DNA of 62,044 nucleotides, the filler included, from Dugesia japonica (Eukaryota), in NCBI GenBank assembly GCA_001938525.1. It is 5 parts of 5 records of this genome, joined end to end, with 100 filler letters (N's around TTAATTAATTAA, not from the genome) between each part and the next. Parts side by side here need not be neighbours in the genome. Positions count along the whole stretch, not along the records: positions 32,917 to 53,102 come from MQRL01604510.1; 4 more parts are not named here. The stretch is one strand, 5' to 3'. Under the pieces are notes generated by a model. It was not told the DNA's origin. It was given only the letters and a program-made list of their open reading frames with translations, and did no database searches. Positions 23,840 through 53,896 of this stretch are shown here, piece by piece (within the stretch, counting starts at the first letter, position 1; each line of letters begins with the position of its first letter). The translations under genes were made by a program, and so were the position numbers.

Positions 23840-24137
23840 CTAAAAATTAAAGTTAAATATTTAAATAAAATTTTAAACTAAACACCAAAATCTTTCCGAT
23901 TGTAATGTTAAAAATAAATTGCTCAAATAGATTAAAATTTTGAATTTCTTTAATATTAAAAGTTCAACATTATATTTGTAACCGTTTGACCATATTGGAC
24001 AAAAATTAGGCTTTTACTTAATAATAAAAAATCACTANNNNNNNNNNNNNNNNNNNNNNNNNNNNNNNNNNNNNNNNNNNNTTAATTAATTAANNNNNNN
24101 NNNNNNNNNNNNNNNNNNNNNNNNNNNNNNNNNNNNN

Positions 24138-25588: not shown

Positions 25589-25836
25589 ATAAAACATTTG
25601 TTCCATAAATATAAAAAATTTGTTTCATAAATATATAAAATTTGTTTCATGAATATAAAACATTTGTTTCATGAATATAAAACATTTGTTTCATGAATAT
25701 ATAAAATTTGTTTCATGAATATAAAACATTTGTTTCATGAATATAAAACATTTGTTTCATAAATATAAAACATTTGTTTCATAAATATAAAACATTTGTT
25801 TCATAAATATAAAACATTTGTTTCAAAAGTATAAAA
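25589..25836. repeat. 22-bp minisatellite (ATAAAACATTTGTTTCATRAAT, about 11 copies)
   Basis: Directly visible tandem copies. Confidence 0.92.
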
Positions 25837-25842
25837 CTAATA

Positions 25843-26520: not shown

Positions 26521-28360
26521 CCGCGATTTATATAAGATGTACCTTATCGATAAGGAAATACGGTAATTAAGTTAAATAAAGTTTCAACTATTAAACATAT
26601 TTCATGCTCTTTCTTTGTACTCTTCCATTAAAAAAAAATTCCTTGGGCCTGAAAACAAAAATCAATGTATTTAACAAGCATTTAAGTTTGAACTGAAAAC
26701 TATGATTTCATTTTACAACATGTGAGAGTTCTGACACAAATTTATCAGTGATATCATTGTAAATCAAAGCTTTTATTTCATAACTTTTGATTTTTCATTT
26801 TTGTCGTGGATGGGAATTAATTGTAATTTTACATAATCGATTTGGAATATTAAAAATTCGATTGTGTTAGTTTATTAATAAAATTCACGTGAACTTATCA
26901 GTTTACAACCATATTATTTCTAGCTGATAATAAGTTTTTTGTTAAAATAAAATTATATTTATTGCTATTGAAATTGTCGGTGAAAATTAAAAAAATTGCC
27001 GGTGTGATTCTTATAAAAGTTTAATTATTTATTTCCTATCTAAGAGAAAGAAAAAGATTTAAATTCTCTTAAAAATTATAAATCAACAATCGAATTGATT
27101 TATTATGTAGGAAATTTTTAAAAAGAGTTTTCGGGAAAACTTTGATATTGTAATTGGAAATGAAATTTTTTCAGTAATGAATATTCAAACTAATTCTTTT
27201 TTCCTTATTAACAATAAAAATTATTTAAAATAAAAGCTTCGATCAAAATTTTTGTTTTTTTTATTGAAATTTGATAATGCGCTCGATAATGGGGGNTGAT
27301 AAAATTGGCGATAAAATTCATATGGTGATATGCGCCACTATCTACCTATTACTATCGATATTTATTACTGATTTGCATTGAATATTATGTTCTACAATAT
27401 TACTACGATTATCTAATCGACTATCTTCCTGAATCATTTTACAGAGATGACAAGAAGTCTCTCCGATGTATGTGACATTACACCCATTCACTTAAATTTA
27501 TAAATAAGATTAGAAACTAATACATTAGTAGACTTTGACTTTTTACTAAACGCATTTATAATTTTAAAAGACCGAGACACAATTTTTAAATTTGGAAGAT
27601 TTACTGAATATTTTAGCAAACCTTTTAAGTATTTAAAGCTCTTAGAATAAGGAATATTTTAAACATAACAAATTTTATCGGTTTTATTAGATTTATCTGG
27701 ATCTTTAATAATGTTTTCATTTAAATCATTCATGTTCAGAACAATATTTTTTAATTTTTCTACAATTGATTTAGAATATCCACTTTTATTTAACATAGAC
27801 CTCATAGTTTGAATATTTGGACTCTTTCTTCTTTTTATTCGAAGTCATGTTCAAATATTTTGTTATTAAATTAAACTTTGATTCAATATTCAGTAAATAT
27901 TTTGTGTGAGATTATTTTTTTTAATTGAAATTTTGTGTCTAATTTTATTGTTTTCCAGTAAAACAATTAATTTGTTAACTAATAATTACGTTGTTAGCAC
28001 GCCCGAAACCAAACCATTGGAAAACATGAATTTAAATTCAAGGGGTATTTTTTAAAATGCCACATAATTTTCGTAACGCTTATTTTTTATTTAAATAAAT
28101 AAAACTTTATTTTAATGAAATAATCTCAAATGCGATCAATGGTTAAGTCCAACAATTATTCTCACAATAATTGTAATTATAAAACTTTATATAAACAACA
28201 AAACTTGAAGTTTTCGAAAAGCAATAATGGCATCCGATATTAAAAAAATTTTTTTTCAAAGGAAGGTTGTGTTTCATTGTGACAGTCATATTCTCTTGAA
28301 AATCACAAGCCATACATTATTTACAAGGGCGATGAGAACAGATTGTCTACAAGAATTTTA

Positions 28361-29471
28361 CAGGGTTATTCATTTATATAGATCCTTTTATTCAATTCTT
28401 TAGATCCATCTTTAAAAATTGACTTAAACTTGAAACATTACAATTTAAATTTTCAACATTTTTTATTCATTGCAAATACATAAACTACTAAATTACTACT
28501 AAACAAATTTCAATAGTCTTGTTGCGATATTCATGAAATCTTGACACAATCATATAAAAAATTCTTCAATGGGATTAAGTTTTGGAGAGTAAGGCGTGAG
28601 AAACTTGTAGATAATATTTTTAGAGCGTAATAGATTCAAAAAATTNTCTGCTTTATGTATGCATACATTGTCCATTACCAAATTATTCGAATTTGATACA
28701 AAATAAGGAACAAGTTTTATTTCAATAAATTCCATTAAGATTATAGAATTATATGCCCTAAGCTATTATACCTTCAAGTCCAATCGTACAAATAAGAGTC
28801 TTATTCATATAACTATTTGCAGGCACTGCGAGATATGCTCTGGTATTTAATGTTGAATAGCCATAGGTACGTTGATCATGCTCATTAAAGCATGTTTCGT
28901 CAAGAAATTCCGAATTTTGATCATTAAATCTTGACATTTCTGAGTAGTTAATGGCTCTAGTCGCTATTTTCCCACACTTTTAAGCTCCTGTGGAATAAGA
29001 GTTAATCTTTTTCTACCAAAATTCATTTTTTAAAAATTTTCTTGATATTGTAGGTTGTGAAATCATGTTCTCTGACGATTTCTTTCATCTCTCTTTGAAT
29101 TAGAGAGTTATTACATTCAATGGAGTTGTATATTGTTTGCTTAATTTCATTAAAAATTGTGTTACGTTCTTTACATGCATTTTTGCAATACTTAGATGCT
29201 GGAATTAAACTCTTGCCGCTCTCAAATCGTTAATGGATGCTGCCAATAGCTTTATTTTCAATCCTCAACGTTTCACCTATATGAATAGGTGTATAATTAC
29301 CGGGCTGCGACATTGATATTAACAAGTCATTTAATTCTTTTGTAATATATTTTCTTTGTTTGCGTTAATTTTTCATTTAAGGATTAAAAATATGGAATAA
29401 ATGGATCTATAAAATTGAATAAATGGAACTTTAGAAGTGAATAAATATATCTATAGAATTGAATAACCTTA
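28361..29471 (-). mobile_element. Tc1/IS630-like (DD34E) transposon, decayed
   Basis: TA-flanked TIRs CAGGGTTATTCA / TGAATAACCTT; FLDETCF, then VMDN-(34 aa spacing)-E in FLTPYSPKLNPIEEFF. Confidence 0.85.
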
Positions 29472-31310
29472 TAATTAAAATTATTTTCAACTTACCTTAA
29501 TAATTATTTTAAAGAAAATTTTCAGCTGAGATGTAAAAAAATTAACTTTGCTTTAAACCAATTTCCAATGAATAATTTTCTGTATTAAATGATACATTAA
29601 ATTCTATAATACCAATTGATTTAATNTTTTCAAACAACTTTCATTATTAAAACTCCAAGTTGAAAATATAAAAATAGTTTGTATCATAGTCATAATGATT
29701 AAGTAAAGAAGGCTCAGAGAAATATTTAAAAATTTTATTAAAGTTTTTGAAATATGATATGTAAAGTTTATTAATTTTTTTTACTTTCAAACTTTTGTTT
29801 TAGTAATAAAATATCTTTAATTTTCAATATTTTCGTGACACGTTAAGTAAAAATTTTAAGCTTTTTTTTAAAAATAAATAATATAATAAGTTTATAATTA
29901 CAATTATTGTGAGATTAATTGTTGGACTTAACCATTGATCGGATTTGAGATTTCATTAAAATAAGTTTAGGTTTCAAATTTTTAAATAAAAATTAAAATC
30001 GTACCATATAATAGAAATCAAATATTTAATGATTTTGATTATTTCAGATACTTATTTTCATCAAAGTGGCAAGTAGAAAGCCTTTTTCTAGTCATTATCA
30101 CGATTTTGTATTGATTATTAAACTTATAAATTCTATAAATTAACTATTGATTATAATTATTAATTTTTATGAAGATTTTTATATTGAAAATGCGTGTTCA
30201 TGCGATGTTTTTAAGATACAAAAACTAATTAAATTCTTAAATAAACACAAGTCAAATCAGTTATTATCATTTAAAAATTCAATGTCAACTTTATTCTATA
30301 CATAAAATCAGATTATTGTAATTTATTTTCAAAAGCATATTGTGAAAGTTGCTTTGATCTAAATAAAATACAAAAGCGCATTTTTTTAAAATTTTCATTT
30401 TTAAAGCATGTATCAGATTAATATGTGTCCATCTGTCGTAAATCAAGAGTTGAAACTGTATATAAAACCCGTTGCGTAATCAATCCAATAATATAAGATT
30501 AAAATAAAATAAAAAGTGAATGCGTATTAAGTTTCAGATTATGCGACCAAATTCAAAGGTTTCGCACGCAATTCTTTCAAAATAATAACTATAATCACTG
30601 TTCAAAACTACACCAAGCAATGCTTATTTTGCCTTTTCTATTTTCTATTCTAGCTGTTTAGAAAATTAAATTTTTCAAAATCCAAATTTATGGTTTTCGA
30701 GTTCATAATTATTCATAATTATATCCACTTTTAAATTGAAATTAAAATATTAAATTAAAAAGCAATAAATATATAAAAAAACAAAATCTAATATGTATAA
30801 TAAAGTATAAAGGTAGAAATATTTTTTAATAATAAATAAAATTAAAAGAAAATATACAAAATATTAACCGGATAAGAAGAGAACAAATGAGAAAAATGGA
30901 AGATATTGAAAATTGGGTTGAAGCAACAAAAGAAAATAATGTTTATTGTACGTTTTTCTAAAAAAAATGTTAATTTGTATTTTGTTTTCTTTTGTCTTAT
31001 TTAATTAAATAAATAACAAAGACTTTTTTTTCAATAAGAAAAATATATTGTTAATAATAAATAATAATTTTAATAAATCAAATTAGAAGAGAATAGACAT
31101 AAAATATTAACATATGAATAAAACAAGAATTACATGTTAATAAATATCAATAATACATAATTTAAACCTATGGTTAATTGGAAATTCTTATTTAGCCATA
31201 ATAAAAANNNNNNNNNNNNNNNNNNNNNNNNNNNNNNNNNNNNNNNNNNNNNNNNNNNNNNNNNNNNNNNNNNNNNNNNNNNNNNNNNNNNNNNNNNNNN
31301 NNNNNNNNNN

Positions 31311-32720: not shown

Positions 32721-32916
32721 CATAAATCAATTTGAGTTTTTAATGATAAAAAGTGAATTTGTTGAAACGGAATCAATAAAATAAAATCAATTAAATTTTT
32801 TTTACAATTGCAATTANNNNNNNNNNNNNNNNNNNNNNNNNNNNNNNNNNNNNNNNNNNNTTAATTAATTAANNNNNNNNNNNNNNNNNNNNNNNNNNNN
32901 NNNNNNNNNNNNNNNN

Positions 32917-33555: not shown

Positions 33556-34710
33556 CTAATCGACTTCCTCTAGTAGACCGTCCTGGTCGCTAGCTCGTGG
33601 TTTGGAACCATATTTTCGTAATATTTCCGTTACGATTGACTGGGACAGGTTTCTCTTAAATTGGTTATGATTCCACACTGAGGTTCTACTGTGTGTTCGG
33701 CTGGGTGTTGCAGAACCGAGTTGTTTACTTTGGGGTTCTTGTATCACTAAAGGAACTGGCTTTCTGGGTTGATTAGGTGCTGAGATTATGTGCGGGACTT
33801 GATCAATTATTTTGTTTATCCATTCTGGTATTTTGGATTTAACTGGAGCTGACNTGGGTTCCTGGATTATTAACGGTGTGTATTGTCTTGGTAGACTGGA
33901 GATTATTGGTTGCCATTCTGAAGAGTCAGGGTTTAGTGTTGATTTGGGTAGATTAAGACTGATTAGATTCCTTGGGTGTGGTAGGATCGGTAGTGCTAAT
34001 GGATGAAAAATTGGTTGCTGAGCTATGTGCGCTTGCTGTAGTTCCTTAATGGTGGCAAATTGCTCGACTAACTGTTGTTGTTTTTGTTTCATCTCATCTT
34101 CTTTTCCATGGTAGAGGTTTCGCAACTCAATGATTTCCTGCTCCAGGGCTTCGATGTATTGCTGTAAGAATTCGTTCTTTTGCTGGTAATCTTGCATTAT
34201 GCTCTCGAATTCCAAGGACAATTTATTGATACCAGCTTGTACCCCTTCTCGATTGGCTAGGCTGGTTAGGAGTTGATTTTCGGTAGCCAGATGATTTCTC
34301 TCAAACTGCGTGTTAAACAGTTCCTATCTAAAACTGTGGTTATTTTCTTGTTCGACTATTAGTTGATTCTCGAGTAACTTTATTTTAGGTTTGACTTTCT
34401 CATATTTACCCTTCCAGCTTTGGGCTTGTTTGATAGCATTTATTTTCGCTCTATTGGCGTCGATATTGCTTTTTATGTATTTTTGGTGGGTTTTGCACGA
34501 TCGCTTCTTTATTTCTAATTCGTGACGTGCTTTTTCTATTTAACTCTCCAACTCGCTAATATATTTTTGCAATTGTAAATTGGATAGTACATCGATTTTG
34601 GATTCCAATTTCCATTTAAGGACTTCAGGTACGGTGGTGAGGGTTTGAGTTTGTATTTGTAAGATTTGAATCTCATTGCTGAGATGGTTTATTAGGTTTT
34701 CCACGTTCAT
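33556..34710 (-). pseudogene. Accessory ORF3: ~385-codon long coiled-coil protein with a Pro-rich C-terminal half
   Basis: ATG at 34710 is in frame with ORF 33556..34221 across two point stops; heptad-rich E/Q/K/L N-half; repeated PL(I/V)IQEP motif in the C-half. Confidence 0.75.
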
Positions 34711-34825: not shown

Positions 34826-36050
34826 CTAATGCCCTTCGTTCCGACACATAGGGCATTCATTTAAGTTTGTAGCACAATTATAGCATGTTTTAAAATGCCC
34901 ACATGGCAGAAATACGACCTTGATGGTTTCTACAAGTCAGATCACGCAATCGTGATCTAGTAATATCCATTCTTGTTCATATTTTGCCCATGGTTTTACC
35001 GATTTGACTGAGTTTTGATATAACTCATATGGAGTGACTTTTTCAGACCCTTTTTCTGTGAACGTTTGTTTTATTAACTGTTTGGTATTCGTCCTATTTA
35101 ACTTTAAGATATTAGACAACCGGTTAATCTGTAAGTCAATTGCCATTTCTATTTGACTAAGCGACATATTTCATTCGATTCTGTATGCTGTTGTTTGTAT
35201 TTCTTCCTCGTTGATTGGTGTTAGTCTTGAATAATTTGGTTGATGGAATACTTTCTTTGGTAATTTCTCTATTCCTTGTAGTAGTAGAGTTTCTCGTTTG
35301 CAAGTGGCGCATTTGATAACTTTATCTCTGGTTTGCTGGACGAGATATAATCCTTCCATTGCTTTTCCTTCGAGATTTGGTATTTTCTGGAAGGTTTTTT
35401 CTTTTTCTTCGATATCCCATTCCAGATCCTCTAACAAGGCTACTTCTGCTAGGTTCTTTATGATTTTACAATATAGCTTCTTTGGTTCTATTGCTGTTTT
35501 CTCGGTTTCGGGTTTTCTTCCTTTAGTTAGTTGGGATTTGTTGTTTACATTTACATTTAGCAGGAATGGAGAGGTAGGAAACCTTTCCCTATGTGCTTTA
35601 TTGGGTTGTTCATTCATGCCCCATTTGTGTAGGATGCCTTGACAATATATACATTTTACTCCATCTGGTCGTTCTTGGGTGCAGAAGTAATAAAATCCGG
35701 ATTTGGCCATAGCCTCAATAAGTCCAGATAGATAGTTGGGCAATTTGNNNNNNNNNNNNNNNNNNNNNNNNNNNNNNNNNNNNNNNNNNNNNNNNNNGTT
35801 GGGCAATTTGGCGAGAGATTGCTTTCTTGCGTGTTCGTCCCGGTACTTCTCATCAAACACTTTCATTGTGCGGTAACACACCCTTTTACTGATGAAATTT
35901 TCCGGTGCCACAAATACGTTACGGTATGTTTTGTGTTATTGCGGTTTGCTTGATTTCCTCTCGTCCTCTGCTCATGACAAATGATTCGATATCGGAATCT
36001 TCCATCAGTAATCTAGCTTCCTGTATTGATACTTCGAAATTGAATTCCAT
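34826..36050 (-). pseudogene. Accessory ORF2: inhibitor of apoptosis protein (BIR, degenerate BIR, C3HC4 RING)
   Basis: BIR AMAKSGFYY..DGVKCIYCQGILHKW..P.KAH...P.SPF (35564-35827); second BIR-like unit EKTFQKIP..EGLYL..DKVIKCATC..H; after two in-frame TGA stops, CVI*LVETIKVVFLPCGHFKTCYNCATNLNECPMCR (34841-34948), an IAP-type RING. Confidence 0.92.
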
Positions 36051-36279: not shown

Positions 36280-36840
36280 TCAGACAAAACTGACTTGGTT
36301 GTGGACACTCCGGGTCTTGAGTGTCTCGATTTCCCTCCTTTGTGAATTTACTACTTTTTTAAGATATTTTAGTTCTCTTGATTGATCAGAGATCAGATCG
36401 TGTTGTTTGGCTACTAATTCCATAGTATAATTTTGTTTTTCTGTGGTGATTTCCAGCATTTGTCGATTTTCTATTATTTGTTGTCGACACATAAGGGTTT
36501 CTGCGTAGAGATTTTCATTCTGGATTTGTAAGATTTTATTTTTGAATTCCAATTCGCACCAATCTACGGGTTTCGTTGTTATTAGGGTTTGTATTAATTG
36601 ATTTTGGTTGAGCTCCAGTTCTTCCAATCGTTGTTGGGTCCATTAAGTTTGGGTTCTAGCACTATTCCATAGTTCTTTAAATTCCTCGTTATGATTTTGC
36701 CAGATTTCATTTAACGTTGCTTGTGGGGGTGTATTGCTTTTAAGATTATTTAATAGAGAGAAATTTCTAGTGCATGACGGACTTACATCAGTTTGAGAGT
36801 CCATAACTTCATTTCCGATTGTTGCTTCTTTTTGGTTCAT
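36280..36840 (-). pseudogene. Accessory ORF1: ~186-codon coiled-coil protein of unknown function
   Basis: ORFs 36643..36840 and 36280..36627 are in frame across a single TAA; heptad-like C-half. Confidence 0.7.
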
Positions 36841-36942
36841 TTCTGAATGTGAAACATTGATTAACTTCGCCGTTGTTTTTGTCTATATACATATTGATAA
36901 GTATTTTACAATTTACATTATTTACAGGTAATTTTTCCTTAT

Positions 36943-38985
36943 TTAACATACCAATATACCCGGTGCCTGGTAGTATCCGGGCCCGTACATTGGTAATTCG
37001 TGAGGTGCGTTTCCTAGTGAAATTCCATAATAACTTGGTGGGGCGAATGGTAATTGTCGCTCCCGTCTGCTGCGGTGATGTTTCTTTTTCTTTGGTTTCG
37101 AAACACATAGACAAATAATGCTTATTATTAACACCGTAATAATAACTCCTCCAATACCTATCACATATCCTAATTCCTGACCTCTTGTTGATTGTACTGT
37201 GATAGTAGTTCTCCTAGGTTCTGTAGTGATTCTTCCTATGCTTTCTAGGTGATTCTTTCTTGGCTCAAATTTGCGTATATTTGACATCCAATTTTTCAGA
37301 AACTCCGCCCTTCTTACTTCCTTCTCATGGTTTTTTGTGGTGGTGGTTATCTGAGTTCCAATGGTAGTTGATAATTTAGGCGTGTGTGTGGACATTTTGG
37401 TGGTCTCCTTTTGTTTTCCTTTTGTTTTTGTTTTGATTACTATATATTGATTGATCACTGTGATGAATTCAAATCCCCATAATTCTTTGTCGAATTCCCC
37501 AATGCCCATTTCTTGGTACCTTTCCCCTCTCCAATATTTTTTACTTCCGAACTTCCATCCCCACTCGTAGAGATCTTTGATCGTATGTATTACCATTTGT
37601 TCCACCTTCTCCACAACCCGTATATAATACCTACGCTTAACTTTTTTCACTTGTAGTGGATATGGCCCCGGTTGCCAATATGGTTTCCATCCCTCCATTT
37701 CCTGATTTGTTATGGAATGTACTTCTCGACCTTGAGTGACTGTTATGCTTTTTTGACCTATTTCTTTTCCTTTTTTATTCCACACATCCGATTTGTATCG
37801 CATGTGCTGCCATATCATAGTATGGTAAAGGTATTCGTTTTTTGAACATATTTTCGGAATCTCATCTCTTGTATTCCTGGTTATCCATTTTTTGTACTTG
37901 AGGTTATTTTCCGAATAATATAGTACGAAGTTCATTTCTTGCTGGGGTTCAGATTCGTTACTTGCTTCGTAGACTAATGGATTCTTTTCATTTTTTAACG
38001 TTACGTCCCAGGTTTTTTCTATCTGCCACTTATTGATATCAAATGTCAATAGTTTTCCTACTATTGGTTCTTGGCTTAGGAATTGTATAATAATCCTCCC
38101 TTTTACTTGATGCAGTTTAATCGTAGTGCTTTTTTGGCTTTTGATTACTGGTGTTAGAATTAATTTTCCGTAACTATACAGTGCCTGGGTTCTCTGTTCC
38201 CTTCGCAGCCTTATATGACTTATTTTTATGACGTGTATTTTCCTTTCCCTGAGGAATATTCTGTGTTCTGTTAGGACTGGTTCGTTTACCTGGCATTCTT
38301 GTCCTCTGATTCCCTTTAGGATCATTATTATAGTTGTTAGTACGATTTGCCCACTGGGAATCTCGTTCTGAGTGGTTACTTGTACTTGCCGTATTGCCAA
38401 TGCCAGTAACGCGAGCCCAACCAGAATTATTCCGGTTAACCCATACAACATTAGTGACATAGGAAGTCCTCTTCCCATGTTTCCGTTTATTCTCATTGTC
38501 AGCCACGTTAATATACCATAATCCCAATTTGTGTTGATTACTGCCCATAACAACAGAGATATTTTAACTATTAATTCCATTTTATTCCTCTTCTCGCTTC
38601 TTTGCAATAGTTCCTTTTTTGATTTACCTGGTTCTGTTTGTTCCCCCTCATCCTGTATCCATATCATTTTCCTTTTCTTCGCCCTTCTGTGCGTTGTTTG
38701 GACTAATTGTCTTTCTCTTTCTTCCATTCCATCCCCTTGGCCCTGTAATTTTTCTCTCGTTGGTTTCCCTTGTTTTTTACACTCTTCGAGGGGATTTGCG
38801 ATAATGCTTGGTTCCGATTTTTTCCAAGTTACATTGCTTTGGATAGTTGGCATGACCATGCTTCCTGGCAATCGGGCTTCTAACGGTTCATATACTCTAA
38901 TCCAGTTCCATCGTACTAGCGTATGGTGAAATAGATGAATGGATTTTAACAATTCTTTGCTGTATACTTCGCACAAGATAAACAC
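36943..38985 (-). CDS. 680-aa membrane protein: three N-proximal hydrophobic segments, ~380-aa ectodomain with Thr-rich stalk, C-terminal TM, basic tail with PPSY
   Basis: Intact ORF; hydrophobic runs LIVKISLLLWAVI, LMLYGLTGIILVGLALLALAI, IVLTTIIMILKGIRG|Q; TM LGYVIGIGGVIITVLIISIICLCV followed by SKPKKKK; no recognised homolog. Confidence 0.8.
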   Translation of the reverse strand: MFILCEVYSKELLKSIHLFHHTLVRWNWIRVYEPLEARLPGSMVMPTIQSNVTWKKSEPSIIANPLEECKKQGKPTREKLQGQGDGMEERERQLVQTTHRRAKKRKMIWIQDEGEQTEPGKSKKELLQRSEKRNKMELIVKISLLLWAVINTNWDYGILTWLTMRINGNMGRGLPMSLMLYGLTGIILVGLALLALAIRQVQVTTQNEIPSGQIVLTTIIMILKGIRGQECQVNEPVLTEHRIFLRERKIHVIKISHIRLRREQRTQALYSYGKLILTPVIKSQKSTTIKLHQVKGRIIIQFLSQEPIVGKLLTFDINKWQIEKTWDVTLKNEKNPLVYEASNESEPQQEMNFVLYYSENNLKYKKWITRNTRDEIPKICSKNEYLYHTMIWQHMRYKSDVWNKKGKEIGQKSITVTQGREVHSITNQEMEGWKPYWQPGPYPLQVKKVKRRYYIRVVEKVEQMVIHTIKDLYEWGWKFGSKKYWRGERYQEMGIGEFDKELWGFEFITVINQYIVIKTKTKGKQKETTKMSTHTPKLSTTIGTQITTTTKNHEKEVRRAEFLKNWMSNIRKFEPRKNHLESIGRITTEPRRTTITVQSTRGQELGYVIGIGGVIITVLIISIICLCVSKPKKKKHHRSRRERQLPFAPPSYYGISLGNAPHELPMYGPGYYQAPGILVC

Positions 38986-39431
38986 AACTTTTTTAGGGTG
39001 GATTGCCGGATAAGTGCTTCAATTGGTAGTTCGATCCGTGACCCTTCACAATCTTTTTTGAACCAATGTTTTCGTCTCGATAACCATGCTTTCTGATCGT
39101 AAATAGCCTTCCACGTAATTTTTAGTATAATTTGTGTTTTCTTCACACATTGTGAACAGTTTCTTTCTAATTGCATTACTGACAGTTGGCATGTTACTTT
39201 TCTGATATGGGCACCATTCTCCTCTGTTCTAGGTGTTTGCATTCCTTGATATGTAATTGGATAGATTGTAGTAGCGCTCATAGCTTCTATCATAAGTGGT
39301 CTACGCATTTGGTTACCTGAATTGAAAGACAATGTATTAGCCCTTTGATTCATAACAATTTCTTTATTATTAGTTAACGACGCACTTTGCCGTATCTGCT
39401 GGGATTGGATATTACTTGATGTATGTTTGAT
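38946..39431 (-). pseudogene. Post-integrase linker region with Cys pairs (CSQC, CLSC)
   Basis: In frame with the integrase tail across one TGA at 39432; overlaps the 680-aa ORF in another frame. Confidence 0.55.
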
Positions 39432-41324
39432 TCAACCTCTTTTACCAGTTTGTTTTATCCCAGAAATACTCGGTGAGGTATTTATGATTGTACTACCTTC
39501 CTTAGTTTTTCCTTGGTTGATGGTTTGTCTACAAACATTCATCTTTAATACCTTAGTTATCTTTTGTAATTCTGTTTCCGTTCTTACTGTATTTGTAGCA
39601 GGTAGACTCGTTTCTTGTTTTACTTTTTTCTCTTTTCCCGTTAATAATCCTTCCCCGTTTTCTTCAAACTCAGCGTCCTTGCTGAGACTGTTTTTCTTTA
39701 CCACTGTTTCCCTACTCCATGGTGAAGGATTTATTAGTAGTTTACTATTTACCGCCATGGCTTTTTGTGACCGTAATGGATAACTGTGTGATATATTTGC
39801 TTCCATTCCTTTCGACTTCCGTGGCCGCCCTGGCCTTCTACGGTCCGTCGTAGTGGGCTCGATGCTTGTGGTTGGTGCGGCTTCTTCTGTCATCGCCGCC
39901 TTTTTACACAAGTTGGCGTGGTATATCTTGGGCTTCTCTAGTAGGTTCCCTTTTTTCCGAACATTGAGGTTAGTTTCTGTTACTTCGATTACTTCATACG
40001 GTTCTTGCCATAGTCTTTTTAATTTTGATGTCGTACCGACAAAAATATCTGGTAAATTGATAATTACCATATAGCCTTTTTTTAAAGGAATGTTGCGCCG
40101 CTGATTTGTCATGTAGTTCCTTGTAGCTTTCCTGGTAGAAACCTACATTTTCTTTGGCTTGTTTCCATATTTTCTGCATGGTCTCATTTAAATTTGCAAC
40201 AAAACCCGTTTCATCTTGATATTGTGTTATCGTTGGTTGGAATTCCAAATCAATAGGCATGTTGCGTTCCCTGCCATACATAAGACCGAATGGAGTGTAT
40301 TTAGTTGCTGGGTGCACACTCATCCGATATGCAAATAGGCATAATTGAATATGCTTATCCAAGTTGTTTTGTTCCTTCTGCGCGTAACTATACAACGTAT
40401 TGATCAGGGTTTTGTTAAACCTCTCCGTTAATCCATCCGTTTGCGGATGATATGGTGATGTCCGTAGTTGGTGTATTTTGAGAAAGTTCGATATTTCTGC
40501 TAATATATTGCTCATGAAATTTTTTCCTTGGTCGGTCAATATTTTCTTCGGAGTGCCGTATCTGCTGAAGAATTTTCGTACCAAAATGTCTGCTTTTGTG
40601 GTCGCTTTCTGATTCTTCATCGGAAGTGCCTCTGGGAATTTGGACAGATAATCCATTATGGTGAGTATGTAGATATTTCCGCTTAGGGTTGGTGGTAATG
40701 GTCCAACTACATCCATAGCGATGATTTCCATTGGCGCCGCTGGTACCGCAATGGGTTTTAATAACGCTTTTACTTTTTTCCTGTTCCTCGTCTGGCAGCA
40801 CATATCTGACATTTAGCAATCCATTCCTTCACTGATTCTGTCATGTGAGGCCAGTAATATTTCTGTCTTAATTTGGATTCAGTTTTNNNNNNNNNNNNNN
40901 NNNNNNNNNNNNNNNNNNNNNNNNNNNNNNNNNNNNNNNNNNNNNNNNNNNNNNNNNNNNNNNNNNNNNNNNNNNNNAACCATCCTTTGGTAAGTGCATA
41001 ACGACCGCCATTCTTCTTTAGGTGTTCCTTCATCTTGGGTTCACATTCTAACTTTTCCAAATTATAACTTTCCATATATTTTATAATGATCTGGATCTCC
41101 TCGTCGTCAGCCTGCGCTTGTTTTAACCCATCGAAATTTCTATCTTCGGCCAATATAAAATATACCATACCAACTATTTTCTCCAATAACTCCCTGAATG
41201 TAAATGTTTCTGTAACCTCGGGTGCGTTCTCCGTGGCTTCTGGTCCACCGATCCTTGATAGAGAATCCGCATTTGAGTTGGCTTTGCCTGTTTTAAATTT
41301 TAATAGCGGACAATAATCTTGCAT
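39432..41324 (-). pseudogene. Integrase (zinc-binding, DDE core, SH3-like GPY/F region, AT-hook tail)
   Basis: KYYWPHM..CQIC; IAMDVVGP, LTDQGKNF, YHPQTDGLTERFN; LWQEPYEVIEV..HANLCKK; RRRPGRPRK; frameshifts near 40790 and 40080. Confidence 0.95.
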
Positions 41325-41333
41325 TGCTAGTTG

Positions 41334-41819
41334 CTATTTTGCCATTCTGTTCCAACGTAACGGTTTCTGAGCCATAAAAGTGATTGGTAAGTGATCCGTA
41401 TAGATAAGTACTTCGTGCCCATGTATAAGTGATCGAAAATGTTTAGTGGCTTTTACAATAGCCATTATCTCTCGTTCTGTGGTGCTATAATTTAGTTCTG
41501 CTCCTTGGAATTTCTTGCTAAAATATGCGATTACTCTTTCTCTTCCTTGTTCATCTAATTGACTCAACACTGCACCCATCGCGTATCCACTAGCGTCGGT
41601 GGCCAATATAAATGGCTTCTTGAAATCTGGGTGTACCAAAATGGGTGCCGTTAATAATTTATCTCGTAATGTCTTGAATGATTGCTGTTGCTCTGGACCC
41701 TATATGAATGCAGTATCTTGTTTGACCAGTTCTTGCATCGGCTTCGCAATTTTTGCGAAATCCTTGATAAATTTACGATAATAATTTGCGAGTCCTAGAA
41801 ACTCCTGTATTTTGAGTAC
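41334..41819 (-). pseudogene. RT connection and RNase H
   Basis: QEFLGLANYYRKFI; FILATDASGYAMGAVL; NYSTTERE; IYTDHLP. Confidence 0.95.
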
Positions 41820-42700
41820 TTAATTTGGTGGTGCTAGATTTCGTATCTTCTCTGTATTTCGCGGATTCGGTTCTTTGCCTTTATCCGATATTAAATGGCC
41901 TAAATATGTTACTTTATTCTTGGCCCATTCGCATTTGGTGGGTTTCACTTTTAGATTCCATTTACGTAACCGTACAAACACACTACGCAAGTCATTAAGG
42001 TGCCCATCAAAGGTTGGCAAATAGATAAATAGATCATCAATATAGGCAATACATTGAGATATGCCATGGGTTACATAATTCATCATCCGTTGGAAAGAGG
42101 CTGGTGCATTAGTAAGCCCGAATGGCATACGGATAAATTGGTATAAGTCCTTGCCTGTGGAAAAGGCCGTTTTCTGTCTATCTTCTGGTTTGATCTTTAT
42201 TTGCCAATAACCGCTTCGCAAATCTAACGTAGTGAATATTTTAGCATTACACAATAATTGCAATAATTCGTTGATATCTGGCAACGGATAAGTATCCTTT
42301 TTCATTTGAGCATTTAATCTTCGGTAATCAATACAGAATCGTTGTGTCCCATCTTTTTTATCTACTAATATCACTGGTGACTGCCATGGNGAGCAGCTAG
42401 GTTCTATCACACCGATTTTCACTAATTTAGCTGTTTCCTTATTTGCGAATTCCTTTTTCTCCACAGTCATGGCGTATGGTTTCTGTTTACATGGCGTTTC
42501 ATCCGTTAATGGAATTGTGTGCATTTTTGCGAGGCACATACCCAACTCTTCATCCGCCCATGCAAAAATATCTCGGAATTCTTCCAGCAGTTGCAGTATT
42601 GCTTGTTTTTGTTCTTCTGACAAAGTTTCCGTTTCTACTTTGAACGTTCTCTCGATTTCCGGTTCAGCGGCTACTTCTTCCATCACTTCGGGCTCTGATT
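41820..42700 (-). pseudogene. Ty3/gypsy reverse transcriptase
   Basis: RFCIDYRRLN, LDLRSGYWQI, MPFGLTNAPASFQ, YIDD, YLGH. Confidence 0.97.
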
Positions 42701-43384
42701 CGATGAGTTTAGCGTGCCCATTCTGGAGTTTGGTCTAATTGTGATATCTTTTTCTGTAAAATTAACTAAGCTAACTGGTACTTCCCCACTTTTGTTGACC
42801 GTGGTTATTCCTCCTGCCGTTTGTAGCTCGTACTGGTGTGCAAATCCGTCATATGGTTCGAAATAACAATCTCCTTCATAGGCACTTTTTGTACTGACTA
42901 CACAATATACTTGGCATCTACTAGGTACCACAATTTCTTCTTTAGTAAATACCTCGTGATCCTTTACATGGGTATAACCTTCCAATGATTGTAACCGTAA
43001 TGTTGAGAAGTTTAATATGCCATTTTTCATCAGGACGGGAAGAATATCCGTTCCCAATATACACTGTCCCATCATTTCCACTATGATCATATTGTGTTTA
43101 ATTCTGTTATCTTGATATTCGACTTCACAGGCTAATTCTCCAAAAATTTTGAGACTACTACCATTTGATACATCTGCTGTAGTGTTAGTGAGTAAGATAA
43201 TTTTATATTCGGTTATCGCGATTTCATCTATCGACAGCATTGATATGGTTGCTCCGGTGTCCACTAGGGCTGTTATGGGTCGGCCGTTGATTTTATCTAT
43301 AATGGTTAATACTGGTCCGCCATTGAGACTTGTGCATACTACATCTGAAGGGTTATGACTGGAGTTTGTTGGTATTTTGTTTTT
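42683..43384 (-). pseudogene. Aspartic protease 2 followed by a beta-rich spacer
   Basis: KINGRPITALVDTGATISML..CILGTDIL; in frame with the upstream ORF across one TGA at 43385. Confidence 0.9.
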
Positions 43385-44680
43385 TCATCTTGGTTCTCGT
43401 TCTTGAAACCTTATCCAATCGTCCCTTATTAAGGTATTGATATTAGTGATTTTCTGAAGGTCTTGGTTCGAATTGTTTTGTTCATTTCGGGCAGTTGGCT
43501 GCTGTCTCAGCCGGTTGGGCGTTGGCTGATTCCATTGTTGTGGTCGTTTCTGTTGGGTTATCATACGAGTTTTCTGATATCCTACCGGTGCATACTCTTG
43601 ATCATAGTTTTCTCGTATCGTTAGTTTTCTCAAGTCCAATATTCCCTTTGGACAGAGGCGTGGTAAGAGGTCCAATCCAAAGAGACAGTCGAATGTTAAT
43701 TCGTTCATTATTTGAGGTTTATGCCAGAAACGGATTCCATCGCTTTCTATCGCACATATTGCTTCTGCCGCGGGTGAGATTTTTTCTCCAGAGGCCGTGA
43801 TGATAACTCCTTTGATTATTGTTATTCTGAGTAGTCGATAATCTTCTAGTATTCTTTTATGGACTAACGTCGTACTTGCTCCTGTATCAATAATNNNTAT
43901 TACCCATCTTCCGTCGATTTTTATTCTTTTTTGTAGTAATTTTGCTTTCTGGGAAATCATCATACATACGGTCTGGTTTTCTAATTTGTCATCCTCCGTT
44001 ATTTGATTATTCGGGGAGCGCAGATTTTGCTCGGTCACTCTTCTGTCCATGGTTGATACATTGTTCTCTGTTAGTAGCGCCATATTAGGGGCTTGTGGTG
44101 GGCTTATATATGGATTGCTGTACATGGGACATGGTGCCCATACTTGTTGGGGTGGTTGGTTCATGGGATGCCAACCATGTTGCGGATAAGCGTTATAATA
44201 CATTTGTGCTGGTGCTGGCGTGCTTTCTCCTCCTCCGAATTTTAACGCATTTTTCAGTCGTTGCATTTTGCTGATCTTTTCGTATTGCTGCCTTTTGAAT
44301 TCTGCATCGTATTCCATGGCAGTTTTATAACTAGGTACATGAGGCGTTCCACTGCTTTCTCCTCTATCATCGTCGCTGCTACTACTACTTTCATCTTTGT
44401 TTTTAAACCTTTCTTTGAATTGGTTAAAATATGATATTTTCTTTATGCCCATTTCTTCGCATAACAATTGGAGTTGCATTATGACTTCCTTGTCTGATCC
44501 TCTTATTTGTCCGAGCTTCCGAATGAATCTCTTTACCCTGTCAATATCCTTGGAGTGACTATTAAGCACCACAGGCTTGGCTAAAAATGGAAATATTCCC
44601 GTTACCATTTTCCAATTCACCTTCTTCTCTCTTTTGTATATATCAAAACATGCGAACAATTGATTAATTACTACTCGTGT
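43385..44680 (-). CDS. Glycoprotein cytoplasmic region, Pro/Gln-rich linker and aspartic protease 1
   Basis: Same uninterrupted ORF (43385..44761) as the glycoprotein TM; IKIDGRWVIxIIDTGASTTLV..DCLFGLDLL. Confidence 0.88.
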   Translation of the reverse strand, partial: TRVVINQLFACFDIYKREKKVNWKMVTGIFPFLAKPVVLNSHSKDIDRVKRFIRKLGQIRGSDKEVIMQLQLLCEEMGIKKISYFNQFKERFKNKDESSSSSDDDRGESSGTPHVPSYKTAMEYDAEFKRQQYEKISKMQRLKNALKFGGGESTPAPAQMYYNAYPQHGWHPMNQPPQQVWAPCPMYSNPYISPPQAPNMALLTENNVSTMDRRVTEQNLRSPNNQITEDDKLENQTVCMMISQKAKLLQKRIKIDGRWVIXIIDTGASTTLVHKRILEDYRLLRITIIKGVIITASGEKISPAAEAICAIESDGIRFWHKPQIMNELTFDCLFGLDLLPRLCPKGILDLRKLTIRENYDQEYAPVGYQKTRMITQQKRPQQWNQPTPNRLRQQPTARNEQNNSNQDLQKITNINTLIRDDWIRFQEREPR

Positions 44681-46404
44681 TACTGAAATTATCAGCATAA
44701 CTCCCAACAATCCTGCTATTGCTTGTCCAAATATGATGAATCGTCCCCACATTTTCCGCATTACGTTTTCTGTGGCCTTTTGTAAGTGATCTGCTGAAAA
44801 TAACGCATCTTAATTCACTCGTCCATCTATGTTAGTTCCACTGGTTAATTGCACTATGTTGGATAAGATTTGCATCCTTCGGACTGGAAACAGCATGTAT
44901 TCCCTGGCTTTCTCCAGATCTTCCCTGCTGTAAATTCCTCCTTTATTTACGTCAATTGGAGTGAATTGCATACCCCCATTCAATCGTAACATGGAGAATT
45001 TCCGTGGTTCGACTCCCACTGCCATTCGTTGCGGAAATCGTATCCATGGACCATCTATCATTATGTATTGTGGTCCAAATACATTAGAGCAATTTATGAT
45101 ATTTGGCCTATAACCCAGTGGTGATATGATTCGAGTAATTGGTTGCACGTATCGTTTCTCGTTATTATGGATAATTTCTATTTCATTGTAGCAGTTTTTG
45201 GGATACAACTAGAACTCGGCATCTAGGGCCTTGCATTTGTATAGGTACATTACTTCTCCTACTACTCGACCGAATTGTCCTTTTTCCAGAGGAAGTAGTG
45301 GAGTGACCCTATCTGGGTTTGTAACTGCCATTGCTAATTTGGTCTTTAATATTTCTTTATTTAATGTGCAGTCATTTTGAATAAGATCGTGGTACATTCG
45401 TCCGATGGTATCTTGCATTCGGTGAAATATATTGTCCAGTTTATTATTGGTATAAAGATGCAATTTGATATCTTGTGACATTTCTGCTGCCTGTGCCGTC
45501 TTTATCCGATGTTCTGACACGAATATTCCTTTGTAATTTGTTTTATACACTATTTGCCCACACTTGGACATCGAATTTCCCTTAATTAACCGGATGGTCT
45601 CATCCTGCTCTGAGGAATTAACACTGTAGGAGTTGTGTGCCATTGCTGGTCGTATATTCTCGGGCCGGACCGTGTTGTTTCTTTGAGATTATCTATCCTA
45701 TCTTTTAGATTACCCTCCTTTGGGGTTTGATCGATCGGTGTTAAAGCTCGTTGTCCTTGATATTCATTGAACATTGCCTCTTTTAGGTGGGCTAGCTTAC
45801 AGTCCTGGTGATCTACTTTGTATGTCAATGTTGATGTACCTGCATTACAGGATCCATCGGCCGCCTTGCAGTATGACCTCCCTTTCATAGTCAGATCTTG
45901 AGCGTCAAAAAATGCTTCGTATTCCTTAAGCTCCACTGTATACGTTTCAATTGCTACCAAGTATGACCATACCTCTCCCCAGATGGTGTATGTACCATAT
46001 TCGCAGTGGCCTTTATGTGAAGATATGCTTCCTGCTGCTTCTATTGGTTGATCAATCACATGTCCTTTCTTGGCGATGACTTGAGTTCTATGTTTGATGG
46101 TGATCTTTCCTGTAGTAAATCCTTCATCGCATTGTTGTCCGGTTAAATGTACGGGGTGTCTCACTGTTCCTGGATCAATTATTGAAGTGTAGCTGTGGTA
46201 CCCACAATGAAATATAAACGTTTTTACCGCTACCGTACACTCACATACTTGGGCCTTATAATAATCTGACTCCTGATATCAGTGGTACACTGAATTATTA
46301 CGGAGTGAAATTTTCTCCGGATTTGCGTCTGGACATTCCTCGGTATCCACTAATGAGAATACCTCTTTCCTAACTTGCATCCCATCGCAATCATATGCTA
46401 CGAT
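44681..46404 (-). pseudogene. Env: chuvirus/Monjiviricetes-like class III fusion glycoprotein (ectodomain and TM)
   Basis: After a signal-like helix: IVAYDC..FSLVDTEEC..YQ..VCECTV..FHCGYHSYTS..C..G..C; later KCGQIVYKTNY, NKLD, C.LNKEILKTKLA, GEVMYLYKC, CYNEI..YVQP.TRII, C...FGPQY, GGIYSREDLE, then TM FIIFGQAIAGLLGVMLIISV. Three point stops and one frameshift (~45615). Confidence 0.85.
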
Positions 46405-46650
46405 GGCTTCATTTCTGCACATCATTAAGAATAACACGAGTATTGCGGTGATTAATGCTTGCCAAGAATTTCCTCGAGGCCCACGTGTCCAACCATTCTC
46501 GATCTCATTTAATTGTTCTCGAACAATCCTTATTACTCTGGTTGCATTTTCATGTGATGGCTGTGTCTTAGGGCATATGGCCTCAACAAATTTTTTCCAT
46601 CCTCCTTGTTGTTTTATCAACGGTGCGATTTTATTTTGCATTAGATCCAC
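46405..46650 (-). pseudogene. C-terminal fragment of a Bcl-2-like domain (BH2) and hydrophobic anchor/signal peptide
   Basis: IAPLIKQQGGWKKFVE matches the BH2 pattern WIxxxGGWxxFV (L codon TTG is one change from TGG); hydrophobic WQALITAILVLFLMM ~40 aa later. The rest is lost at the 46650 junction. Confidence 0.62.
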
Positions 46651-47883
46651 TATCGGTAATTTACTAAGAATGAAGTTTTTTGACCATAGTGAACTAATAA
46701 TTGGAGAAAGAGAAAATAAATTAAAAGAATTAATTAAATTAATTGATGAAAGAAAAAACGACGAACTTAAATTAATTTCAGATCAGAAAAACAAAGAAAT
46801 GAACATAATTAATATTTAAGAAGAAAATAAAATAAATAATTCATTTAATTAAATAAAATAAATCGTACTAATTAAAATGATTTATTTTTAAAAGAAAACT
46901 AAACATTTTGTGAAATATGGCAAAAACGACGGCTTCCCAAGATGGAAAAATGAGCAATTAAGAAGATTATGGTCAAGAAAAAATCGGAGAGTTTNAAAAT
47001 TTAAGTTAAAAAATCATAACAAGACTCAGAAAGAAGATACAAGGGTTTGAAGATGGACCAATAATTTTGGAATCCTAAAATATCCACCAATAAAATGAAC
47101 TCACGTTCAAGCCAATGGAAACGTCAGAAAGATCGTACAATTCCAAATAACCAATGAAAGAAATGGGGGTGTAAAGAAAAACAGTATAAATACCGTTTCA
47201 ATTTCAGACGAAACGGATTTAAAAAAAATTAATCCTTAAGTGACAATCAATACTCAAACCGAACCTCGACAAAACAAAAAGCAATATTAATCAATCTTAG
47301 TTATTGGAAAATTCACTGAAATCAAGAATCTCAACGGTAATTATTTATCCATATGAAATTTGGGTGCAACAATTTCCGACTGGAAGATGAAAAATTATGG
47401 AGGACCATTAGAATCGTTACTGGCTACCAATATGTTGTCAATTCACGTGCTGTGCTTGCTCCGGATCGGAATTCAGTCTATGTTAGTTATATTGATTGTT
47501 GTAATTATATGCTTAATTATTAATAACTGAAGTTTGTTAATCTCAATATATTTTTCACTTACAAACTCTTTTGTTTTTATGATAATTAATCTCCTAACTA
47601 ATGAAATTAAAAATAACTAAGATTAATCAGATTAATAAACACTCCATAAACTGGAAATTTTATAAGAAAACGATAAATATGGGTCTTAAGTTAAGCCAGT
47701 ATCATGAAGTACGAACTTAAACTACAGGAATGCGAGTCTGTACTCGAACTACGAGTCAACGGCTCCATTCCGAAGATCTGGATTTTTGGGGACTCCAAAT
47801 TAAATTCTTCGCGGGGTTTTATTAGGCTGACCATCCTGGACTTAATTATTAAAACCTCAACCCACCTAGACAAAACCCCAACA
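46651..47883 (+). repeat. Solo-LTR-like element (~1.23 kb) that truncates the giant element
   Basis: Abrupt shift to A-rich non-coding sequence; termini TATCGG..CCCCAACA; CCAAT boxes (~47112, ~47151) and TATAAATA (~47185); 3' 180 bp similar to 50670-50848; no matching TSD. Confidence 0.55.
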
Positions 47884-48395
47884 CCTGTATTGGGGTCTTT
47901 ATTTTCATAATAATATTTTTTATCCGTACATTGTATCCATGATTATCCTCCCTGCCATCGTCATTGCTCTTATTGGCAACAAAATTTATATCAGTCCTAT
48001 CAGCTTCATCATTCTTGTGGTCGTACAAGCTACAAGTTACCGATCCTGTCCTGAATATCTAGCATAGAAATTCTAGATTAAATTTTTAGTGGGGTTTTAC
48101 TAGGCGGCTATACACCTGGTCATAAATTACAACTTTCCAATCTAGCTAGAACCTAAACATATAGATCAAATGAGAAAATATTATGTGATGTCAAGGAGAT
48201 CAGGGAAATTGTTAACAGAGTTTTGCTTTCATTTACTTAATAACGCATTTTATAATTGTGAGTATCGATTTATGGATTTCAAATATCTGAGATTTTTTAA
48301 TTTTTAATTAAAATGATAAAATTGGTTTTTTGAAACTTTTAAAATATAAAAAAGGTTTTTTAAAACACAAATTAATTGAATAAATCCTGTATATT

Positions 48396-48720
48396 ATATT
48401 ATGTTGAATTATAAAACTATAAAAATTATTTTGTAAAATTAGGTTTAAAAATAATTAAATATATATAATAAAGGTATTTTAAAATTAAAGTCAATATTTT
48501 ATATTATGTTAAATTATAAAATTATAAAAATAATTTTATAGAATTAGGTTTCAAAATAATTAAAAATATATGTAAAATAAAGGTATTTTTAAAATTAAAA
48601 TTGATATTTTATATTATGTTAGATTATAAAATTTTAAAAATTATTTTGTAAAATTAGGTTTAAAAATTATTAAACATATAAATAAAATAAAAGTATTTTG
48701 AAATTTAAAAAATCAATATT
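48396..48720. repeat. ~108-bp AT-rich tandem repeat, 3 copies
   Basis: Unit ATATTATGTTRRATTATAAAA..AATTAGGTTT..AAAGGTATTTT starts near 48396, 48501 and 48611. Confidence 0.85.
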
Positions 48721-49699: not shown

Positions 49700-50848
49700 A
49701 AATGATTAATTTATTGTGTGCAGAATGATATTACCTGGTATGATGTGTGTAAAAAATCAGTATAAATACTGATCCGTTTTAGTTGATTTCCAGACAATTT
49801 TCTTGGGAAACCAATCTCTCAGANCGGCTTTCCCATTTAAATTTAATTTCTGGCTTATAAGGTCTTAAGTGTAAGCTATATTTGTTATACATCCAAAATA
49901 TTATTTTTTAAAGGTGTGTTTAATTTATTTATATTAGGACATTACATGTATTACGATATCTACAATTTTGCTTAAAATATTACATATAATATTGTATTAT
50001 ATAATATTGTATCACATATATAACATCATCATTTAAAGAATAAAATCAAACACCCTTAATATTAGTTACTTGTATTGTTTGTTATAATAAATACCAATGA
50101 AAATTTCACAAAAAATTCAATCTTTTTAATCTGTTATCGAAAATCCCACAGTTAGACGGAGAATTTTTCAAATATTCACAGAAGGTGGCTATTTTGTACT
50201 AATTGATTACAGTTGCAGCGATTTCCGATTTGATGAATTACAGAAGTTATGAAATCCAAAATAATTGGCGTCATTATGCAGATTTGGATCCAAAGTAAAT
50301 GGTTAAGTTGTATACAATTGGTGATCATGTTAAATCCAATAGCTCATGTGTTTGGTCCAGATCGAGATTGCAGTCCACGTTAGTTTTATTGATTGACCTA
50401 ATTATTAAATTGATGTAAAACAAGTGAAAGTTTTGATAATTGAATATATTATTCACTTGTTAAATTCGTTTGTACTTTACAACTGTAAAAACATAGGGTA
50501 TGGAATTTTAAACTAAAAGTTATAACAGTATAAACTCAGTTAAATATGCATGACCATGAATTAGAAGAGATTATAGCGGATAAAATAAAATCTAATAAAC
50601 GATTTATAACCTGAAATCCAAAAAATTAAGAATTGATAAGTAGCAAGTATGATTCGAAAATCCAGCGAATATTATGAACCCAAACCAAAGGAACGCGAGT
50701 CTGTACTCGGATTCCGAGTCAAAGGCTCCGTTCCAAAGATCTGGTTTTTTGGGGACGCCAGATTAAATTCTTCAGAGGGGTTTAACTAGACCGACAACCC
50801 TAGACTTAATTATTAAAATAATTGACCCCCCTAGATAAAACCCCAACA
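49700..50848 (+). repeat. Related LTR-like repeat ending CCCCAACA
   Basis: CAGTATAAATAC at ~49758 as in the 47185 copy; 50670-50848 aligns by eye with 47700-47883; weaker copies at 23215-23320 and 48050-48150; left boundary uncertain. Confidence 0.5.
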
Positions 50849-53073: not shown

Positions 53074-53202
53074 GTATTTTTATAAAAATTATGTTTATTA
53101 CTNNNNNNNNNNNNNNNNNNNNNNNNNNNNNNNNNNNNNNNNNNNNTTAATTAATTAANNNNNNNNNNNNNNNNNNNNNNNNNNNNNNNNNNNNNNNNNN
53201 NN

Positions 53203-53817: not shown

Positions 53818-53896
53818 TGTATTATTCAAAAAGGAAATTTCCATAAAATAGTACGATGAAGAATACAATACAATTTACCGATGAATTTGTCAATTT

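Follow-up and report, generated by a model that had tools for sequence, protein, structure and literature searches.

A membrane module after the integrase of a decayed Burro-like Ty3/gypsy element in Dugesia japonica, a candidate surface attachment protein with an exchangeable ectodomain

What does the long open reading frame (ORF) that follows the integrase (IN) of a decayed planarian retroelement encode, and did it belong to that element? The question arises from a 62,044-nt stretch of Dugesia japonica DNA (assembly GCA_001938525.1; hereafter the window), in which one contig, MQRL01604510.1 (32917-53102), carries a Ty3/gypsy-type element on the minus strand. The ORF in question (hereafter the target ORF) is very probably the element-encoded membrane module of a Burro-like Ty3/gypsy polyprotein. 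Given that identity, an adhesion or attachment job has about an even chance. Our best reading from sequence, held with slightly less than even confidence, is an element-encoded surface adhesion or attachment protein with an exchangeable ectodomain.

The target ORF occupies 36943..39018 on the minus strand and comprises 691 codons from stop to stop, with the first Met at codon 54. The original prediction, which gave the ORF as 36943..38985, had found a real frame with a different strand and extent: read on the plus strand, the frame at 36943-38985 is riddled with stops, and position 38985 corresponds to codon 12 of the minus-strand frame. The two other frames over the target ORF contain 62 and 26 stops. 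Because the longest stop-free run averaged 107 codons over 1000 base shuffles and reached at most 220, the target ORF is taken to be coding-derived. It is also, as had been claimed, the longest ORF in the window (18 ORFs of at least 150 aa). Its intactness is uninformative, as the probability of a surviving gap of at least 2073 nt was 0.55-0.78, assuming 16-20 random breaks in a 12.9-kb element. Since one surviving 2-kb ORF is expected, there is no sign of domestication.

Topology was judged from Kyte-Doolittle hydropathy (19-aa window) and charge alone. Hydrophobic peaks of 1.22 (aa147-165), 2.45 (aa191-209), 1.33 (aa219-237) and 2.95 (aa619-637) were obtained. A hydrophilic basic leader (aa1-146, 38581..39018), read as a cytosolic polyprotein linker, precedes a weak hydrophobic segment, H1 (aa148-163, 38530..38577). 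The strong segment H2 (aa186-208, 38395..38463) ends in ALA|IRQ and is most likely an internal signal peptide or signal anchor. It is followed by a short segment, H3 (38302..38346), with IRG|QEC (38310-38293) as an alternative cleavage site. A simple (-3,-1) filter yielded four candidate signal-peptidase sites, so the signal-like IRG|QEC site of the original prediction is present but is one of four, equalled by ALA|IRQ (aa208), which lies behind a much stronger segment.

The putative ectodomain (aa240-530, 37429..38301) is Trp-rich, with 11 Trp in aa239-530, basic, and poor in Cys and sequons. It contains the motifs IKLHQVKGRIIIQF (38121-38080) and LQVKKVKRRYYIRV (37656-37615), which had been read as two tandem units; in all six split or matrix tests the score was equalled or exceeded by 741-988 of 1000 shuffles, and the tandem arrangement is not supported. 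A Thr-rich stalk (aa531-616, 37171..37428; 26% Ser/Thr) leads to the C-terminal transmembrane (TM) helix (aa617-640, 37099..37170). The 51-aa tail (36946..37098) consists of the stop-transfer sequence KPKKKKHHRSRR, with KPKKKK at 37098-37081, then PFAPPSYY (37050-37027), in which PPSY (aa660-663) lies at 37041-37030, and the motifs YYGI and LPMY. After the last hydrophobic segment there are eight Lys or Arg residues and no Asp or Glu. According to the positive-inside rule, the basic flank of a TM segment marks the cytosolic side; the tail is predicted to be cytosolic and the ectodomain luminal because of this flank. All the motifs quoted in the original prediction were thus present, and hydropathy and charge give the frame the layout of a type I membrane protein, in which signal-like segments, ectodomain, stalk, TM helix, stop-transfer and PPSY tail follow one another.

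The same order of signal, ectodomain, stalk, TM helix, basic flank and short tail after IN was sought in related elements. A reverse transcriptase (RT) search retrieved P0003, P0008, P0009 and P0007. In the first three, the fusion glycoprotein family PF24664 is fused before Pol, and in P0007 Pol continues in frame into a signal, an ectodomain, a Thr-rich stalk, a TM helix and a Pro-rich tail. A search with P0007 residues 900-1644 added P0121-P0130. The window IN falls within a clade of 13 members, with an ultrafast bootstrap (UFBoot) value of 92 in a tree of 33 sequences and a FastTree support of 0.93 in a tree of 58 of 165 sequences. The window RT belongs to a matching 11-member clade (0.88; 56 of 222 sequences) and is sister to P0003 at 0.99. 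Outgroups in these trees were the best-scoring other matches, and the remaining matches were left out.

A TM segment in frame after IN was found in 9 of the 12 clade proteins compared to none of the 193 other IN-bearing matches, 132 of which have tails of at least 150 aa. This contrast supports the claim that the target ORF belongs to the element and encodes a second type I membrane protein following IN, as predicted from sequence. P0009 and P0125 end without a post-IN TM segment; P0123 stops early, but in locus L001, from which it comes, reading on through a single stop in that frame leads into the stalk and TM helix. Fusogen, Pol and membrane module lie in single ORFs of 2627-2855 aa in P0126, P0129 and P0130, and P0129 has a Gag-like start with a weak CCHC match. 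For the fusogen, the best piece still shows 38-46% identity. Scanning GTDB with the fusogen yielded no locus, and an IN-based scan returned two short clade loci only, L001 and L002, the latter showing a signal and one ectodomain unit before its contig ends.

Some relatives carry additional modules. Ankyrin repeats follow integrase inside the polyprotein in P0127 and P0128, a weak C2H2 finger lies between proteases in P0126, and several relatives (P0124-P0128) hold one more retropepsin, located after IN and before the signal. P0123/L001 and P0130 were deposited under the names of bacterial metagenome-assembled genomes and look like eukaryotic contamination.

The stretch that joins the target ORF to IN bears on whether it was a polyprotein tail or a separate gene. 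Apart from a single stop (39432-39434) and a single frame change (overlap 39018-38946), the DNA from IN to the end of the target ORF is open. A 161-codon frame (38946..39431), with two CxxC pairs and no family match, shares its frame with the IN C-terminal ORF, from which one stop separates it, and overlaps the target ORF in another frame. This frame and the 146-codon leader are each open beyond chance (P = 7e-6 and 2e-5, respectively). The polyprotein tail is favoured because these linker parts are open beyond chance, because the first Met is codon 54, and because of the layout of the relatives. The target ORF is probably a C-terminal polyprotein module and not a gene of its own. A degenerate protease in the linker was considered and rejected, as the clade protease profile was significant in 3 of 522 window ORFs and in none after IN. 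A heptapeptide common to P0007 and the 161-codon ORF was likewise discarded, being at chance level (263 of 300 shuffles). The two CxxC pairs possibly form a zinc ribbon.

The relatives' ectodomains are made of one to three homologous units, and the alignment of nine of them was modelled by AlphaFold as two beta-sandwiches with a predicted local distance difference test (pLDDT) score of 86. The top Foldseek matches of this model were pairs of fibronectin type III (FN3) domains in fibronectin, Tie2, integrin beta4 and neogenin (probability 1.0, E = 7.5e-7). Compared with the PDB, the unit profile matched titin first (E = 5.3e-6), then neogenin, gp130 and fibronectin; Pfam fn3 was weakly matched by three of nine relatives. 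A profile built from these units detected the FN3 unit in 9 of 238 proteins, all within the clade. According to these models and matches, the relatives' ectodomains are mostly tandem FN3 domains, a type of repeat that serves adhesion and receptor binding. The units have conserved Cys pairs. The ectodomain of P0129 is different and Cys-rich, and that of P0007 had no match in the ESM Atlas. In P0121, residues 47-232 form a further signal, FN3-like unit and TM segment just before the protease, where others have the fusogen end.

The tail motif had been interpreted as a late domain. The PPSY sequence does lie in the predicted cytosolic part, and the expected conservation of PPxY among copies, checked in the relatives, failed: only 2 of 10 tails contain PPxY, and 2088 of 20,000 shuffles of the Pro- and Tyr-rich target tail (about 10%) produce the motif. 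The second instance is a PPTY at a like place in P0129, where it is the sole [PL]PxY in all 2694 aa, counting Gag. A Pro-Pro pair is present within 50 aa after the TM segment in 7 of 10 tails. An [ST]-x-V C-terminus, presumably a class I PDZ-binding motif, ends five of nine relatives (as T-x-V) compared to 4 of the 193 non-clade proteins. Late domains normally reside in Gag or matrix proteins. The late-domain reading of the target tail is consequently weak, and from their motifs the tails resemble a mixture of sorting and adaptor signals more than a fixed late domain.

Several observations weigh against the proposed membership and role of the target ORF. The P0007 query included the membrane module and may enrich for it among the ten clade members so found, although 8 of these 10 aligned to only 39-50% of that query, roughly what its IN part would cover. 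Within the clade, the window element branches deepest and has the longest branch. At 38580, just before H1, a Met in good Kozak-like context offers a possible alternative start and allows a separate gene. No match to the target ORF was found among 5.8 billion proteins in a word search restricted to near lengths, among 1.84 billion representatives (phmmer with aa147-691), or in the ESM Atlas. The FN3-unit HMM (hidden Markov model) scored -7 on the target ectodomain, hhalign against the FN3-unit profile gave 0.09%, and a glocal FN3 test yielded z of at most 1.5 in nine of nine target windows; in the control for this test, 16 of 16 left-out true FN3 units beat all 60 shuffles. The ectodomain has 2 Cys and 1 sequon compared to 4-12 Cys and 1-14 sequons in the relatives, and the tail is without the T-x-V C-terminus.

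Other searches with the target ORF agreed with this picture. Pfam, applied to the whole sequence and to six parts, returned no family and weak TM-type matches only; PDB sequences and phage records gave nothing usable; and 76 of 78 GTDB loci held no homologue. The AlphaFold and Foldseek check proposed in the original prediction was run. The single-sequence model was poor (pLDDT 37) and confident at the TM helix only, and its Foldseek and VIA-align matches (best Z 4.9) were set aside. Two FN3 hints are weak, and neither survives the number of tries: a pairwise match of the ectodomain to P0122, reached by 2 and 6 of 500 shuffles, was seen with 1 of 12 targets and was absent with the close relative P0121, and aa391-424 (37848-37747) matched the membrane-proximal-unit profile, one of four profiles, with 31 of 1000 shuffles as good, as might the end of an FN3 unit. 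Trp is commoner in the target ectodomain than in the relatives. The slot is thus conserved, while the target cargo, judged by its sequence, either differs from that of the relatives or has diverged past recognition.

The following mechanism is proposed. Before decay, the target ORF would have been part of the same polyprotein as Pol, as we infer for this copy. The polyprotein would be made at the endoplasmic reticulum, where the internal signal after integrase would send the ectodomain into the lumen and signal peptidase would free it. The last helix and its basic flank would anchor the protein with its tail in the cytosol, and the element protease would release Pol from the two flanking membrane anchors. 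What results would be a second surface protein, synthesised alongside the fusogen, with an ectodomain that may be exchangeable cargo: FN3 in most relatives, Cys-rich in P0129 and an orphan here. Its job would be to hold particles, or the producing cell, against the target membrane so that the fusogen can act, with the tail directing sorting to the membrane site. A wider proposal, which we consider possible but doubtful, is a two-protein entry apparatus from one polyprotein, in which a conserved fusogen precedes Pol and a swappable attachment protein, built from captured host-like modules such as FN3 repeats, follows IN. If this were true, Pol would be slung between two membrane anchors, and the orphan ectodomain of the window would be an unrelated attachment domain, possibly with a new fold.

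The variability of the ectodomain can be read in other ways. A captured receptor-like protein on the producing cell could act as a host-modulating decoy, soaking up ligand or degrading host surface proteins by way of tail motifs (PPxY for NEDD4-type ligases, Yxx-phi, PDZ) and acting with the neighbouring inhibitor of apoptosis (IAP) for cell survival, so that presence in particles would be unneeded. Wide variation of ectodomains fits such a role, as do the BIR-RING type of the accessory IAP gene, the ankyrin repeats and C2H2 fingers added by relatives, and the way in which FN3 units, stalk, TM helix and a short kinase-less tail mimic cytokine or adhesion receptors. Burro elements, according to the text of PMC6431247, are rich in apoptosis- and ubiquitin-related domains. 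However, 9 of 12 relatives have the module fused to the polyprotein, which ties the amount of the protein to that of structural proteins and suits a structural role, and searches with the ectodomains turned up no homologous host receptor; we consider the decoy unlikely. If the ectodomain were instead loosely constrained filler, the signal and TM helix would serve as a tether of Pol to the budding membrane. That the two hydrophobic elements are kept as the ectodomain changes freely would be explained, and the extra retropepsin of several relatives (P0124-P0128) would look as if it frees Pol. Folded FN3 units kept in one to three copies with their Cys pairs are not expected of filler, nor does a tether need the further FN3-TM module before the protease of P0121, which makes this very unlikely.

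A closer bond to the fusogen was part of the original prediction; in its strong form, the protein would be an obligate envelope partner, binding the fusogen, supplying a PPxY late domain for budding, or doing both. The PPSY of the predicted cytosolic tail, the sole [PL]PxY of P0129 at a like place and the frequent Pro-Pro pairs near the TM helix are in its favour. An obligate partner should be conserved, and the ectodomains of the window, of P0129 and of the FN3 group are unrelated although the fusogen is retained at the identity given above; together with the rarity of PPxY, its one-in-ten chance origin and the usual place of late domains in Gag or matrix, this leaves the partner quite unlikely. 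The least probable reading, a highly improbable one, is a host gene fragment or domesticated gene unique to the locus, which would account for an ORF that is less broken than any other in the element and has no homologue among the relatives. The intactness is expected by chance, as calculated above, and no intron is needed. The ORF also has the base composition of the element (about 38% GC, A-rich strand) compared to 13-35% GC in the flanks, no host homologue was found, and the architecture recurs clade-wide in the same place. The surface attachment protein is the preferred reading.

The element that carries the target ORF was annotated by Pfam searches of 20 window ORFs. On the minus strand, from about 46500 downwards, the order is fusogen, two proteases (PR), dUTPase-like segment, RT, RNase H (RH), IN, target ORF, coiled coil and IAP, so that the Ty3/gypsy (Metaviridae) Pol order PR-RT-RH-IN is present. 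The Monjiviricetes-type fusion glycoprotein (PF24664) is in five pieces (44400..46470), and its TM end forms one ORF with the first protease (44809-43385), placing Env in frame before PR. Two retropepsin domains and the dUTPase-like segment occupy 42683..43933; the latter matches PF00692 between PR and RT with E = 4.6e-4 and 20.4 bits, below the curated cut-off of 22. The two retropepsins stand in tandem before RT; the relatives hold up to three such domains, some after integrase. RT and RH (41334..42734) are broken by stops, and IN (39432..41333), with an H2C2 zinc domain, rve core and C-terminal domain, is spread over three frames.

Beyond IN come the 161-codon frame, the target ORF and three accessory frames. 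The first of these is coiled-coil-like by a crude heptad score, with one internal stop and no Pfam family (36280..36855). The second is the IAP gene (34829..35935), with BIR PF00653 (E = 1e-12), RING (E = 8e-11) and possibly a second degenerate BIR, broken by stops and an N gap. The third is a further coiled-coil-like, Pro-rich ORF piece (33556..34323). About 11 stops or frame changes across the 6.6 kb from fusogen to IN indicate a decayed copy. About 13 kb of the element can be recognised. No pair of long terminal repeats (LTRs) was found, though the 3' end lies about 640 nt from the contig linker at 32817-32916; no tRNA was found in the window; and the N-terminal parts of four relatives gave no tblastn match (E of at most 0.5) in the window that would mark a Gag remnant. 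The copy looks 5'-truncated. Between 33000 and 46000, the coding strand is biased to A (AT skew of -0.19 to -0.36 on the plus strand), with about 35-40% GC compared to 13-35% in the flanks.

The window contains further repeats and remnants. Contig linkers (N44-TTAATTAATTAA-N44) lie at 9083-9182, 24038-24137, 32817-32916 and 53103-53202, and neighbourhood across them is not real. A 616-bp inverted repeat (53203-53818 and 61430-62044; 99.8% identical), extending from a contig linker to the window end, may mark the two termini of an 8.8-kb element or may have arisen as an artefact of assembly, and a weak DNA polymerase B match (60250-60771, E = 0.043) is located inside the pair. A second decayed gypsy-type pol (protease, RNase H) runs in the opposite orientation at 55306-57262 on the plus strand. 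Other repeats are a dispersed direct repeat at 47451-47883 and 50347-50848 (2.96 kb apart, 73-82% alike), a three-copy array of 110 nt at 48372-48696, a minisatellite at 25579-25837 and an inverted-repeat family resembling miniature inverted-repeat transposable elements at 12489, 16015, 20111, 24904, 27213 and 28080-29996.

Among known systems, the window element is most like the planarian Burro elements, as judged from their published description. The original prediction missed this Burro-type GAG-ENV-POL likeness, along with the most likely polyprotein-tail nature of the target ORF and the FN3 ectodomains of its relatives. The text of PMC6431247 places the env of Burro elements in frame after gag and before pol, puts a dUTPase-like segment after PR and ahead of RT, and lists BIR, Smc and ankyrin motifs. 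Burro, or GYPSM1, giant gypsy-like elements thus share with the window element an in-frame Env ahead of PR, akin to mononegavirus fusion proteins, a BIR and perhaps the dUTPase-like segment, and with the clade the combination of one long polyprotein and accessory ORFs, as well as ankyrin repeats (P0127, P0128). That text names no post-integrase membrane protein and no FN3, unlike the clade. The BIR of the window lies in a separate downstream BIR-RING ORF, unlike in Burro; Gag, BCL2, MATH and LTR were not found in the window element; and the Burro internal region of up to 25 kb (more than 30 kb with LTRs) compares to about 13 kb recognisable here (PMC6431247).

The errantiviruses with GAG-ENV-POL order and an HSV/gB-type env, described from Nematoda, Bryozoa and Platyhelminthes in the main text of PMC13524379, likewise combine a Ty3/gypsy Pol with a fusogen before it, and we infer that PF24664 corresponds to their HSV/gB env type. 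The words "fibronectin", "accessory", "ankyrin" and "dUTPase" are absent from that main text, and the parts consulted describe no second post-IN membrane protein. A non-Env TM protein or exchangeable cargo on a gypsy-type element has parallels in the variable, exchangeable ORF3 cargo of bdelloid rotifer LTR elements and in the small TM protein sORF2 of MDG1-group elements; according to the text of PMC5408684 and PMC11952523, however, these replace Env and are separate smaller ORFs, whereas the module here is added to a fusogen and fused to Pol in the relatives. Troyka was rejected as the closest system, since the text of PMC12440569 gives it no envelope. Literature searches showed no description of a second FN3-type post-integrase membrane protein, but the figures or supplements of Grohme 2018, Sacco 2022 and Jurka 2007 may annotate one, and the novelty of a second post-integrase surface protein is provisional.

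Env-bearing gypsy elements are described with a single envelope protein. If a clade-wide second surface protein were real, attachment would be split from fusion, or a surface decoy would be present, as in large DNA viruses. The module would also explain part of the unannotated length of the giant polyproteins and provide a testable handle on target-cell choice by invertebrate endogenous viruses. Two-component entry is familiar from viruses: paramyxoviruses use an attachment protein and F, and herpesviruses use gD/gH-gL and gB. No sequence or fold link to these proteins was found, and the comparison serves as a working analogy for a surface protein that may have stood beside the fusogen of this element.

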